Shown here: positions 1-6,611 of the stretch, piece after piece
Position numbering within the stretch: the stretch's first letter is position 1
Layout: every line of letters begins with the position of its first letter
Source: a virus
Taxonomy: Duplodnaviria; Heunggongvirae; Uroviricota; Caudoviricetes
IMG/VR virus record: IMGVR_UViG_2744054854_000002
Direction: 5' to 3' (one strand)
DNA: 6,611 bases
Position numbers and translations under genes: made by a program
Notes under the pieces: generated by a model
What the model saw: only the letters and a program-made list of their open reading frames with translations
Told to the model about the DNA's origin: nothing
Database searches by the model: none

Positions 1-99
1 GTGGCGGCGGCACAGTTGGTGTGGCGGCCTCAGTCCGGAACAATTTGAAAACAAGAACCTCGCTTAGGCCTGTGTCCATATTACGTGGGTAGGATCATC

Positions 100-255
100 A
101 TGCGTGAATATCCAAATGGCGAAAAAACACACCTTACTGTAATGGCCGCAGGGTTTCCATCTCTGACCGGAGATCATAAAGTCATTTATGTAGCCGCGGA
201 TCGACATGTTACTTCAGAAGAAATTCTGGAAGCAGCAATAAGGCTCTTGAGTTGA
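100..255 (+). CDS. ynfN: Small 51-aa protein, YnfN-like (Qin-type prophage small protein)
   Basis: ATG at 100-102 with AGGA at 91-94 (5-nt spacer); 51 codons to TGA at 253-255; translation MREYPNGEKTHLTVMAAGFPSLTGDHKVIYVAADRHVTSEEILEAAIRLLS. Too short for the supplied ORF track. Identity rests on memory of K-12 YnfN and on the conserved neighbourhood (gnsB, ydfO, ynfO, Nu1 homolog). Confidence 0.5.
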   Translation: MREYPNGEKTHLTVMAAGFPSLTGDHKVIYVAADRHVTSEEILEAAIRLLS

Positions 256-348
256 TTTGATGCTATTGCATTGATAATTCAGGAAAATTCTCTTTGTCTG
301 TTTGTGTAAAATTTAGACTATCGTATGTTGATTATTGCGATGTTTCAT

Positions 349-395
349 CTTATCTTTTACACGTTTGCACCATATAATCGACTTACTGTGTAACT
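349..395 (+). promoter_or_regulatory. Candidate sigma70 promoter for the gnsB-like gene
   Basis: Perfect -10 hexamer TATAAT at 373-378; weak -35 candidate TTATCT at 350-355 (17-bp spacer); TTGCAC at 365-370 is an alternative -35 for a downstream -10. AT-rich intergenic region upstream of the ATG at 427. Sequence-pattern only. Confidence 0.3.
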
Positions 396-426
396 GGAAA
401 GTCATAACAGACTAAAAGAGGAAATG

Positions 427-599
427 ATGAATATTGAAAACTTAAAAACAAAAGCAGAAGCAGATATTTCTGAATATATAACAAAAAAATTATTGAACTT
501 AAGAAAAAGACCGGGAAAGAAGTTACCAGTATTCAGTTTACCGCACGGGAAAAAATGACGGGTCTTGAAAGCTATGATGTCAAGATTAATTTAATCTGA
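427..599 (+). pseudogene. gnsB: GnsB/GnsA-family gene with a frameshift in an A7 homopolymer
   Basis: ATG at 427 with SD-like AGAGGA at 417-422. Frame A reads MNIENLKTKAEADISEYITKK then runs to TGA at 556-558. The other frame, from the A-run at 483-489 onward, reads IIELKKKTGKEVTSIQFTAREKMTGLESYDVKINLI and ends at TGA 597-599. Together they give 57 residues colinear with GnsB as I recall it (MNIEELKKQAETEIADFIAQKIAELNKNTGKEVSEIRFTAREKMTGLESYDVKIKIM). Span is 173 nt; 174 (A8) would restore one frame. Confidence 0.6.
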
Positions 600-626
600 T
601 GTATTCAATAATAAAATTTATCCATA

Positions 627-657
627 AACCTCGTTTTTACGGGGTTTTGTTATATTT
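627..657 (+). terminator. Candidate rho-independent terminator downstream of the gnsB-like gene
   Basis: Stem AACCUCG (627-633) pairs with CGGGGUU (640-646) including one G-U pair; 6-nt loop UUUUUA; followed by UUUUGUUAUAUUU. Orientation-specific: the reverse strand is followed by an A-rich tract. Confidence 0.35.
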
Positions 658-713
658 GAATGGTTCCGAATATCTAAATCACAATTGTTGATGGTTTTTA
701 TTAAACCAATGCA

Positions 714-742
714 GTCCGGCTCAGGAGTGAGAGAAGCCGGAC
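714..742 (-). terminator. Possible weak terminator hairpin after the ydfO-like gene
   Basis: Perfect 8-bp inverted repeat GTCCGGCT (714-721) / AGCCGGAC (735-742) with a 13-nt loop, just 3' of the minus-strand stop at 751-753. No clean U-tract follows on the minus strand, so weak. Confidence 0.2.
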
Positions 743-750
743 GTTATGGT

Positions 751-1161
751 TTAGCGTGGTAAGATCTGTGTAGTTTTCTGGATGCTTTCAGTAAATAGTA
801 ATAAATTATCAAAGGTATAGTAATATCTTTTTTGTTCGTGGATATTTGTAACCCACCGAAAAACTCCTGCTTTAGCAAGGTTTCTTCTGTATTCCTGAAA
901 TGTGATCTCTCTGGATTTCAGCTTATTAGAGGTCGTTTCTATAAGATGCCTATCCTTTGAAAATTTGACAGACACAATGTTTTTTAGGCCCTTTAATAAC
1001 ACTGTATTATCATTTTTTAATACAATATGAACATTCTCTGTGGCTAAATAGTAAATGTAATGTGAGACATTGTGACGTTTTAGCTCAGAATAAAACCATT
1101 GATAGTTTAAATCGTTTCGAACTTTATCAAATATTTGTTTAAAAATGACTACCTGATCCAT
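751..1161 (-). CDS. ydfO: DUF1398-family prophage protein (YdfO/YbcV-like, often labelled putative envelope protein), 136 aa from the second ATG
   Basis: Track ORF 751..1176 (141 aa). The first ATG is preceded by C-rich sequence with no SD. The second ATG (1159-1161) has GGAAGG with a 7-nt spacer, giving [18 protein letters not shown]... Family assignment is from memory of K-12 YdfO/YbcV and from gene order. Confidence 0.7.
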
Positions 1162-1218
1162 AGATAAACCTTCCATGTGATATGAGGGGGCGTAGTCTGC
1201 ACGATTATCTAAATTTCT

Positions 1219-1452
1219 TCAATCTGGTCTGACCTGTTTTCTGAGCAATTCAGTAATGTCACTCTTTTCTTTGTTTGCTTCAGAAGAAACTCTTTTTTCT
1301 GAGCACAGTCTCCGGCGGCAGGCTTCAATGACCCAGGCTGAGAAATTCCCGGACCCTTTTTGCTCAAGAGCGATGTTAATTTGTTCAATCATTTGGTTAG
1401 GAAAGCGGATGTTGCGGGTTGTTGTTCTGCGGGTTCTGTTCTTCGTTGACAT
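1219..1452 (-). CDS. ynfO: 77-aa ribbon-helix-helix-like small protein (YnfO-like), immediately upstream of the ydfO-like gene on the same strand
   Basis: Track ORF 1219..1452. Basic N-terminus MSTKNRTRRTTTRNIRFP followed by NQMIEQINIALEQKG and SGNFSAWVIEACRRRL, matching the beta-strand/helix/G-turn/helix pattern of Arc/MetJ/CopG folds (visual inspection only). 42-bp gap to the ydfO start. No strong SD. Confidence 0.55.
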   Translation of the reverse strand: MSTKNRTRRTTTRNIRFPNQMIEQINIALEQKGSGNFSAWVIEACRRRLCSEKRVSSEANKEKSDITELLRKQVRPD

Positions 1453-1640
1453 GAGGTTGTCCCGTATTCAGTGTCGCTGATTTGTATTGTCTGAAGTTGT
1501 TTTTACGTTAAGTTGATGCAGATCAATTAATACGATATCTGCGTCATAATTGATTATTTGACGTGGTTTGATTGCGTAGATGCACGTTGTGACATGCAGA
1601 TGATAATTATTATCATTTTGCGGGTCCTTTCCGGCGATCC

Positions 1641-1674
1641 GACAGGTTACGGGGCGGCGACCTCGCGGGTTTTC
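1641..1674. other. cosN: lambda-type cohesive-end nicking site
   Basis: CGACAGGTTACG (lambda right-end terminus) abuts GGGCGGCGACCT (lambda left-end 12-nt cohesive end, 1652-1663) then CGCGGGTTTTCGCTATTTATGAAAA. Flanking 1453-1650 is colinear with the lambda right end as I recall it, with scattered substitutions; this includes the cosQ region. Confidence 0.85.
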
Positions 1675-1694
1675 GCTATTTATGAAAATTTTCC

Positions 1695-1820
1695 GGTTTA
1701 AGGCATTTCCGTTCTTCTTCGTCGTAACTTAATGTTTTTATTTAAAATACCCCCTGAAAAGAAAGGAAACGACAGGTGCTGAAAACGAGCTTTTGGGCCT
1801 CTGTCGTTTCCTTTCTCTGT
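1695..1820 (+). other. cosB: terminase small-subunit binding region (R3, A/T-rich IHF-type bend region, R2, R1)
   Basis: R-element-like motifs CATTTCCGTTCTTCTTC (1704-1720, R3), GAAAGGAAACGACAG (1761-1775, R2, inverted) and CTGTCGTTTCCTTTC (1801-1815, R1). R2 and R1 are a perfect 15-bp inverted repeat separated by 25 bp. A/T-rich stretch 1725-1750 lies between R3 and R2. Position between cosN and Nu1 matches lambda. Confidence 0.75.
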
Positions 1821-1840
1821 TTTTGGCCGTGGAATGAACA

Positions 1841-2360
1841 ATGGAAGTCAACAAAAAGCAGCTGGCTGACATTTTCGGTGCGAGTATCCGTACCATTCAG
1901 AACTGGCAGGAACAGGGAATGCCCGTTCTGCGAGGCGGTGGCAAGGGTAATGAGGTGCTTTATGACTCTGCCGCCGTTATAAGATGGTATGCCGAAAGGG
2001 ATGCTGAAATTGAGAACGAAAAGCTGCGCCGGGAAGTTGAAGAACTGCGGCAGGCCAGCGAGACAGATCTCCAGCCAGGGACTATTGAGTACGAACGCCA
2101 TCGACTTACGCGTGCGCAGGCCGACGCACAGGAGCTGAAAAATGCCAGAGACTCCGCTGAAGTGGTGGAAACCGCATTCTGTACTTTCGTGCTGTCGCGG
2201 ATCGCAGGTGAAATTGCCAGTATTCTCGACGGGATCCCCCTGTCGGTGCAGCGGCGTTTTCCGGAACTGGAAAACCGACATGTTGATTTCCTGAAACGGG
2301 ATATCATCAAAGCCATGAACAAAGCAGCCGCGCTGGATGAACTGATACCGGGGTTGCTGA

Positions 2361-2386
<26 letters not shown>
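1841..2386 (+). CDS. nu1: Terminase small subunit gpNu1 (181 aa)
   Basis: Track ORF 1841..2386; MEVNKKQLADIFGASIRTIQNWQEQGMPV... matches the N-terminal winged-HTH of lambda Nu1 as recalled. Near-identical to lambda along its length; 26-nt overlap with A as in lambda. Confidence 0.95.
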
Positions 2387-5118
<2,732 letters not shown>

Positions 5119-5284
5119 CGCCACGACGGCATCCACGAAGGCGACAGAGGCAGCTGGCAGTGCGACGGCAGCAGCTCAGAGCAAAAGTACGGCGGAATCT
5201 GCAGCAACGCGCGCTGAGACAGCGGCAAAACGGGCAGAGGATATTGCATCCGCCGTGGCGCTTGAGGATGCGAGCACGACGAAA

Positions 5285-5497
5285 AAGGGGATAGTACAGC
5301 TCAGCAGTGCGACCAACAGCACTTCCGAGTCACTGGCGGCAACGCCAAAAGCCGTTAAGGCCGCGTATGACCTGGCTAACGGGAAATACACCGCACAGGA
5401 TGCAACGACAGCACAGAAAGGGATAATCCAGCTAAGCAGCGCGACCAACAGCACGTCTGAAACGCTGGCGGCAACGCCAAAGGCAGTAAAAGCAGCC
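5285..5497 (+). repeat. Tandem in-frame duplication of the conserved tail-fiber motif (two ~81-bp copies, 132-bp period) inside stf
   Basis: Copy 1 at 5285-5365 encodes [27 protein letters not shown]; copy 2 at 5417-5497 encodes [27 protein letters not shown]. Nucleotide copies are similar but not identical. Lambda Stf, as I recall it, has one copy. Confidence 0.8.
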
Positions 5498-6611
5498 AAT
5501 GACAATGCTGAGAAACGTCTGCAGAAAGATCAGAACGGTGCGGATATCCCTGGCAAAGACACCTTTACGAAAAATATTGGTGCCTGCCGTGCCTTCGGTG
5601 GGTCAGTAAGCACAACAACAGGAAACTGGACGACTGCACAGTTTATCGAGTGGCTGGATTCTCAGGGAGCATTTAACCATCCATACTGGATGTGCAAGGG
5701 TTCCTGGTCTTATGGCAATAATAAAATCATTACTGATACTGGCTGCGGTAATATTCATCTCGCCGGAGCTGTCATTGAAGTAATGGGGATAAAGTCAGCG
5801 ATGACGATCCGCATTACCACACCGACCACCTCCACTGGTGGTGGAACAACTAACGCCCAGTTTACCTATATTAATCACGGAACAGATTATTCACCTGGCT
5901 GGCGAAGGGACTATAACTCCAGAAATAAGCCAACGGCATCAGAGATCGGGGCGTTACCGTCAGGTGGAACAGCAGTATCATCAGTTAATCTGTCTTCAAA
6001 AGGTCGGGTAACCGCGCTGACAGACAATACGCAGGGGGCAACAGGTCTTGAGTTATACGAGGTGTATAACAACGGATATCCAACAGCGTATGGAAATATC
6101 ATTCACCTGAAAGGGATGACAGCCGTTGGCGAAGGTGAGTTACTCATCGGCTGGAGTGGTACAAGCGGTGCTCATGCTCCGGCATTTATTCGTTCACGAC
6201 GGGATACGACCGACGCAAACTGGTCGCCGTGGGCGCAGCTTTACACCTCGGCTCATCCTCCTGCAGAGTTTTATCCAGTCGGTGCACCAATCCCGTGGCC
6301 ATCAGATACCGTTCCGTCTGGTTATGCCCTGATGCAGGGGCAGACTTTTGACAAATCTGCTTACCCGAAACTTGCAGCCGCTTATCCGTCAGGCGTGATC
6401 CCTGATATGCGTGGCTGGACGATTAAGGGCAAGCCCGCCAGTGATCGAGCCGTATTGTCTCAGGAACAGGACGGCATTAAATCACACACCCACAGCGCCA
6501 GCGTATCCAGTACGGATTTGGGGACGAAAACCACATCGTCGTTTGATTACGGCACTAAATCCACGAATAACACTGGTGCGCATACCCATAGTGTTAGCGG
6601 TACGGCTGCTT

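Follow-up and report, generated by a model that had tools for sequence, protein, structure and literature searches.

Gene content and setting of the locus

The window, that is, the whole stretch of 6,611 nucleotides analyzed here, comprises the right end of a lambda-like prophage; cos and then the packaging genes come next. ORF calling recovers two co-oriented minus-strand ORFs, at 1219-1452 (77 aa) and 751-1176 (141 aa). The original prediction had placed ynfO and ydfO at these same positions, and both names are borne out by Pfam, NCBIfam, and PDB entry 2HH8. The product of 1219-1452 is a YlcI/YnfO-family (DUF3950) protein, matching Pfam DUF3950 (PF13132; E value, 2.7e-21; 75.6 bits against a curated cutoff of 25) and NCBIfam YlcI_YnfO_N (NF041551; E value, 3.3e-9; 36.6 bits against a cutoff of 30). 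The product of 751-1176 matches Pfam DUF1398 (PF07166; E value, 8.9e-46; 155.3 bits against a cutoff of 22), covers this profile over its full length (1-119/119), and is identical in 139 of 141 residues to E. coli YdfO of PDB 2HH8. In RefSeq, the corresponding DNA bears the names ynfO and ydfO in about 2300 E. coli genomes (identity up to 99.8%), the contiguous ynfO-ydfO arrangement being present in 2317 of 5426 complete genomes (E. coli chromosomes, RefSeq), and window positions 96-2369 are 99.3% identical to the K-12 Qin prophage. Since 81 of 82 related loci preserve both ORFs intact and their pN/pS ratios are 0.24 to 0.31, the two represent more than chance reading frames. We conclude that ynfO and ydfO are real, already cataloged genes of the E. 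coli Qin-type lambda-like prophage.

Both genes are read leftward and lie antisense to the late operon, in the interval from the lysis/gns region to cos. On the plus strand, the cosN cohesive-end sequence GGGCGGCGACCT can be read directly at 1652-1663, 200 nt from the ynfO start codon; it is the left-end sequence of lambda. Nu1 follows downstream of cosN at 1841-2386 (Pfam Phage_Nu1; E value, 2e-101). From ydfO (31% GC), the GC content rises to 36% in the 3' part of ynfO, 49% in its 5' part, and 53 to 54% in Nu1/A. The picture of AT-rich accessory DNA between the lysis region and cos, in which a small basic protein is encoded upstream of and co-oriented with a larger one, was thus drawn correctly from the start. 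The gap between the two genes is 42 nt when measured from the longest ORF and 57 nt from the likelier ydfO start (see below).

Several other features of the window were observed. The gnsB gene (424-600) is frameshifted, with A7 at about 483-489 compared with A8 in the 99.7%-identical strain EC11, giving a product of 44 aa compared with the 57-aa GnsB; either a homopolymer sequencing error or a true pseudogene could explain the difference. From about 5117, portal gene B (4486-6611) no longer matches the intact EC11 prophage and continues into an Stf-like side-tail-fiber reading frame (frame 3 from about 5120), a junction from which it follows that head and tail genes are deleted and that the prophage is defective. 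The K-12 Qin deletion is larger and removes the equivalent of window positions 2370-6008. A ynfN-like ORF (85-255; PHROG 3425/4911) lacks its 5' end; the truncation, at about position 95, coincides with the onset of similarity to the EC11 prophage and is another mosaic junction.

Translation start and fold of YdfO

The true start of ydfO is probably the ATG at 1161, which gives a 136-aa DUF1398 protein encoded at 751-1161 (minus strand); the longest ORF, reaching up to ATG 1176, equals the 141-aa construct of PDB 2HH8. We prefer ATG 1161 because a Shine-Dalgarno sequence, GGAAGG, sits 7 nt upstream of it and because a 1-nt indel in lambda and DLP12 throws the upstream ATG out of frame in otherwise conserved sequence, as seen in an alignment of the upstream regions of the window, K-12 Qin, DLP12, and lambda. 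The RefSeq annotation of ydfO also starts at ATG 1161.

The AF2 model of YdfO is confident (pLDDT, 89.8) and displays two repeats of helix-helix-three strands, the fold of the solved member 2HH8. Residues L32, Y40, T46, N48, A101, G104, W108, R117, and Y119 are nearly invariant, and their identity does not suggest a catalytic site. In addition, no enzymatic or sensor domain is present in YdfO. YdfO is an alpha/beta protein of two repeats whose fold is unique, and it probably acts nonenzymatically through binding of a partner or ligand.

Relationship of YnfO to ribbon-helix-helix proteins

YnfO consists of a basic N-terminal arm (aa 1-13), a putative ribbon-helix-helix (RHH) core (aa 14-49), and a lineage-specific C-terminal tail (aa 50-77). 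The N-terminal 49 aa, with the core IRFP...NFSAWVIEAC, are invariant or nearly so in the family, while the tails differ wholly between lineages. Among 82 loci, the N-terminal part has a pN/pS of 0.24, and the tail has one of 0.31. The AF2 model of YnfO shows a coil followed by two helices, with a pLDDT of about 85 in the core, which is how an RHH monomer modeled without its partner would be expected to appear.

A DUF3950 profile built from 127 sequences was compared with RHH proteins using hhalign. It aligns to Arc (P, 0.007), placing N-I-R-F-P over N-L-R-W-P, to the NikR N-terminal domain across the whole strand-helix-turn-helix (P, 0.03), and to Mnt (P, 0.13), in each case in the same strand/helix register. 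The top Foldseek matches of the YnfO model are to the RHH antitoxin ParD2, at a nonsignificant E value of about 8. Searches of YnfO against the PDB with phmmer and hmmsearch gave no match to solved RHH proteins, and a Pfam search at E values up to 10 returned DUF3950 alone. The RHH character originally proposed for YnfO thus finds partial support: the coil-helix-helix model and the common register with Arc, NikR, and Mnt speak for it, but no sequence or structure match reaches significance. Taken together, these models and alignments are weakly consistent with YnfO being an Arc/NikR-like RHH DNA binder, which we regard as plausible.

Control elements around ynfO and ydfO

A palindrome, ATCTGGTCTGACCTGTT, lies at 1222-1238 and overlaps the last codons of ynfO; its core, GGTCTGACC, occupies 1226-1234. 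The upstream alignment reveals a block conserved upstream of ydfO, ybcV, and the lambda homolog that starts at GGTCAGACC (1226-1234) and ends at the Shine-Dalgarno site. This palindromic motif has been reported from gSELEX as a PdhR site, AAcaGGTcagACCAgaT, at ynfO/ydfO, with a matching site between ybcV and ybcW, and ybcV mRNA is 10-fold lower in a pdhR mutant (PMC7660256). Judging by the Shine-Dalgarno site and the conserved palindrome, ydfO appears to carry its own control elements, and we infer that it is independently transcribed. We consider ydfO, ybcV, and ycgX to be regulated by the host, namely, by PdhR and probably also by H-NS.

Nested inverted repeats, ATCAATTAATACG/CGTCATAATTGAT and TGATGCAGAT/ATCTGCGTCA, are located at 1514-1554, 60 to 100 nt upstream of the ynfO start, in a region 96% identical to lambda, and constitute a candidate operator or promoter region. 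Scans of the minus strand for consensus sigma-70 promoters gave none for ynfO, ydfO, or ybcV. The sequences preceding DUF3950 genes in different types of element cannot be aligned, so that no shared operator is definable, and the other palindromes seen upstream of satellite DUF3950 genes are not conserved between contexts. Three GTTTAAAC-type palindromes, for example, precede the DUF3950 gene of a Dickeya island (L131, about 5870-5950), which also bears the defense genes KwaA/KwaB.

The 57-nt spacer between ynfO and ydfO (1162-1218, minus strand) holds the ydfO Shine-Dalgarno site and contains no terminator-like hairpin, and for this reason the two genes may be cotranscribed in the Qin arrangement. 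One reading of the locus, the weaker of the alternatives in the original prediction, builds on this point, namely, that of a self-regulated bicistronic cassette specific to Qin, in which YnfO would repress its own promoter and set the level of YdfO from a single ynfO-ydfO mRNA. Such a cassette would account for the co-orientation of the genes across a terminator-free spacer, for the inverted repeats upstream of ynfO, for how common the Qin arrangement is, and for the intactness of both genes in 81 of 82 loci under purifying selection that includes the YnfO tail. However, ydfO keeps the upstream element of lambda and DLP12, where reading from ylcI must cross a divergent gene. Moreover, the same YnfO N-terminal domain can be accompanied by ybcW/ybcV, by bor alone, or by no cargo, and ydfO alleles are shuffled relative to ynfO. 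We therefore hold the cassette to be possible but unlikely.

Arrangement in lambda, DLP12, and the Qin lineage

Lambda and DLP12 also carry both genes, in the same orientation and next to cos, but separated by the divergent gene ybcW on the opposite strand, within a segment of about 560 to 650 bp. Window positions 1290-2000 are 96% identical to lambda, the stretch between 1235 and 1290 is specific to the Qin type, and the ydfO stretch (732-1235) is 84% identical to lambda, whose DUF1398 protein is 78% identical to YdfO. The direct adjacency of ynfO and ydfO is best read as a feature of the Qin lineage, where the ybcW segment of lambda and DLP12 is absent, and not as a functional unit.

In a lambda CRISPRi screen, knockdown of the ydfO homolog lambdap78 (ybcV) leaves lambda plating unaffected, and the gene is dispensable for lytic growth. 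A CRISPRi screen scores lambdap79/ybcW (L001, 3716-3922) as "essential," while the literature cited by that screen has it as nonessential; the gene lies in the late-operon orientation, and a polar effect is a possible cause of the score. Lambdap79 is also named six times in a 2026 preprint on a NADase defense domain.

Different histories of ynfO and ydfO

Comparison of diversity across 82 Qin-type loci shows a synonymous diversity (pS) of 0.03 to 0.05 in ynfO versus 0.23 in ydfO. YnfO retains an amino acid identity of at least 92%, tail included, while the YdfO alleles joined to it range from 73.5 to 100%. Identity drops sharply at about position 1180, marking a recombination break at the ydfO start. 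The contrast in pS, the shuffled YdfO alleles, the break near 1180, and the steps in GC content (49%, 36%, and 31%) together indicate that the two genes have separate histories. As a side observation, ynfO and ydfO share a reading frame, and in some assemblies a TGA-to-TGG change results in a read-through YnfO-YdfO fusion (P0122, 233 aa).

The occurrence of each gene without the other points in the same direction. By tblastn, YnfO-like genes are found in 155 of 50,697 phage records, compared with 43 records for YdfO-like genes. Phage 434 carries a cos-adjacent DUF3950 gene followed by bor, i.e., YnfO alone, and Stx phages likewise carry YnfO without YdfO; in Stx phage YYZ-2008, the DUF3950 gene has Rz on one side and, on the other, a packaging module (HNH/TerS/TerL) of another type. 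A second YnfO subfamily, of 63 to 67 aa and about 40% identity, occurs widely in Klebsiella, Salmonella, Serratia, Yersinia, and Dickeya. Within cf-PICI/P4-like islands (L126-L132), no gene other than that for DUF3950 runs on the opposite strand between alpA and the primase gene, and no DUF1398 gene was found near it in the islands examined. What is constant in DUF3950 is its position, alone on the opposite strand within a long operon of the mobile element. Some members have escaped annotation, as in the satellite records of Pasteurella phage Pmp7 (L003, 2501-2680, plus strand, 59 aa) and vB_KppS-Ant (L004, 2501-2704, plus strand, 67 aa), where the DUF3950 ORFs lie antisense inside CDSs labeled "transcriptional repressor" and "hypothetical protein"; in many Enterobacteriaceae genomes, the same protein carries the label YlcI/YnfO family.

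Among E. coli genomes, DUF1398-like DNA is present in 5376 and ynfO-like DNA in 4184, with at least 1192 genomes containing a DUF1398 gene (ycgX) but no ynfO-like DNA. In K-12, ycgX is the third DUF1398 gene and adjoins bluR, with no DUF3950 gene beside it. Distant DUF1398 proteins are widespread in Klebsiella aerogenes and Raoultella ornithinolytica (up to 941 and 1000 contigs, respectively), and none were found in scans of viral and metagenome contigs; these genes and ycgX look like resident chromosomal genes. The genome scan with a single DUF1398 protein recovered close relatives only, of which many were lambda control-DNA contaminants. The lambda ybcV/ylcI region is found on many ENA contigs of about 3.5 kb and in "genomes" of unrelated taxa such as Kitasatospora, Cohnella, and Flavobacterium. 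These contigs look like nanopore lambda control DNA and inflate the apparent diversity and host range of the DUF3950 and DUF1398 families, and some of the variant "tails" are probably read errors.

These patterns bear on the proposal that the adjacency of the two genes marks a toxin-antitoxin pair or an obligate two-gene module. In its type II form, YdfO would be a toxin neutralized by the C-terminal tail of YnfO, an autoregulating RHH antitoxin. Gene order and sizes do resemble those of RHH-antitoxin/toxin operons, ParD2 supplies the top, albeit nonsignificant, Foldseek matches of the YnfO model, and ydfO was insertion free in one TraDIS screen (PMC5821084). However, YdfO matches no toxin fold. 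Nor are the genes inherited as a unit, as seen from the solitary ycgX, the 5376 versus 4184 genomes, the interposed ybcW, and the recombination break, and the YnfO tail does not covary with YdfO, which argues against an antitoxin tail gripping a toxin. The inference drawn from adjacency in the original prediction is hence not supported, and we deem a toxin-antitoxin function extremely improbable. The TraDIS "essentiality" of ydfO was not accepted as functional evidence, since strains exist from which the Qin and DLP12 prophages, ydfO and ybcV with them, have been removed completely (PMC3105296). Additionally, overexpression of ybcV from an ASKA clone leaves cells viable, albeit in hosts that have retained ylcI and ynfO, and a Keio ybcV::kan strain exists.

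Accessory character and reported responses

Both ynfO and ydfO are listed as uncharacterized in the 2024 y-ome list (PMC11551758), in line with the earlier remark that neither protein has an established function. Several observations would suit a lambdoid moron: variable presence in phages, a GC content of 31% in ydfO, an orientation antisense to the late operon, and a nonessential homolog, lambdap78. No promoter or terminator of its own emerged, however.

Accessory genes at such variable positions may protect the lysogen, and YdfO, with or without YnfO, could likewise be antiphage defense or superinfection exclusion cargo. The variable accessory position near bor and gns and an orientation suited to expression from the prophage agree with this idea, as do the 116-fold induction of ydfO by an ionic liquid, a membrane-active stress (PMC4077768), and the more than 1000-fold increase of ybcV/ybcW upon expression of T4 MotB, which binds H-NS (PMC7827196). 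On the other hand, PADLOC-DB 2.0 contains no match to YnfO or YdfO at E values up to 1, enzymatic and sensor domains are lacking, and no phenotype is reported for ydfO/ynfO. In addition, the DUF1398 genes of Klebsiella aerogenes and Raoultella, like ycgX, have a chromosomal appearance and are absent from viral contigs. We consider a defense role very unlikely.

Expression of ydfO is also altered by DicC overexpression (PMC11430063). A further, often-repeated report, that YdfO overexpression leads to oxidative-stress resistance (PMC4077768, citing PMC3105296), was rejected, as the cited source concerns YfdO of CPS-53 and never names ydfO. A similar confusion is found in PMC9181523, which prints ydfO where yfdO is meant.

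Two independent accessory genes as the preferred reading

We consider it probable that ynfO and ydfO are two independent accessory genes of a lambda-like prophage and not a coevolving pair. According to this model, ynfO belongs to the cos-proximal segment that the window has in common with phage lambda and most likely encodes a small DNA-binding regulator of the Arc/NikR-like RHH kind that has a basic N-terminal arm, the inverted repeats upstream of its own gene being the first candidate target. Its relatives occupy equivalent places as lone opposite-strand genes, either in the late operon of other lambdoids or, in satellites, between alpA and the primase gene. The ydfO gene would be a separate AT-rich cargo gene with its own ribosome-binding site and a conserved upstream palindrome reported as a site of the host regulator PdhR. 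Lack of the ybcW segment in the Qin lineage would then have brought the two genes side by side.

A bolder version holds that DUF3950 is a hitherto unstudied class of small RHH regulators, common to phages and satellites as the lone opposite-strand gene of an operon, and that YnfO of Qin has captured YdfO as a regulated effector. We rate it as decidedly unlikely. If true, helper phages and satellites would share a DUF3950 control point, beside the packaging genes in the lambdoid late operon and in the AlpA operon of cf-PICI/P4-like elements, and the effector YdfO would carry a host-physiology or phage-exclusion phenotype.

The preferred reading of two separable modules changes how these genes are to be studied, with ydfO, ybcV, and ycgX as stand-alone, host-regulated genes and ynfO/ylcI as a conserved small regulator. 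Both ynfO and ydfO reside in the best-studied bacterium and have homologs in phage lambda itself, yet both are still uncharacterized. Our results stop the spread of a wrong toxin-antitoxin annotation and flag the mix-up of the names YdfO and YfdO. The main interest lies in DUF3950 as a conserved regulator of lambdoid phages and satellites and in the unique DUF1398 fold.

Comparison with known systems

The ParD/ParE, CcdA/CcdB, and RelB/RelE operons resemble ynfO-ydfO in that a small RHH-like gene lies upstream of a gene for 130 to 140 aa on the same strand. They differ in that ynfO-ydfO lacks a toxin fold and is not inherited as a unit, each of its genes being found alone.

The repressors Arc and Mnt (phage P22 immI) and NikR share small size and a basic N-terminal arm with YnfO. 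The strand motif N-L-R-W-P of Arc resembles N-I-R-F-P of YnfO, and a helix, a G-containing turn, and a helix would follow in YnfO as in Arc, although no significant sequence or structure match links YnfO to Arc, Mnt, or NikR. The mnt gene of P22 lies inside a late operon on the opposite strand, and ynfO is similarly placed; unlike in immI, no ant-type target gene is adjacent to ynfO in the window. In Stx phage YYZ-2008 (L005, 3001-4781), an antirepressor gene, ant, is found less than 1 kb from the DUF3950 gene in convergent orientation, and an AntA-domain gene also neighbors the DUF3950 gene in cf-PICIs. These neighbors recall the Arc/Mnt-ant region of P22, although the genes are laid out differently.

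Cf-PICI/P4-like satellites of Klebsiella, Dickeya, and Pasteurella (Pmp7) encode DUF3950 proteins of 59 to 67 aa whose core, IRFP...NFSxWVxDAC, corresponds to that of YnfO. They are set apart by an identity of about 40%, by a position between alpA and primase instead of at cos, and by the lack of a DUF1398 neighbor.

The lambdoid prophages of K-12 and lambda itself also offer counterparts. K-12 Qin carries ynfO (b4533) and ydfO (b1549; PDB 2HH8) with the same sequence and arrangement as the window, whereas the window prophage retains genes that K-12 Qin has lost, namely, those for the terminase large subunit and W and part of portal gene B. At the right end of lambda and DLP12, the order is a ylcI-like orf (64 aa), ybcW (lambdap79), ybcV (lambdap78), and bor. 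The N-terminal 49 aa of their YlcI are identical to those of YnfO, while the tails are unrelated, and the cos-adjacent position, the orientation, and the palindrome upstream of ydfO/ybcV are the same as in the window.
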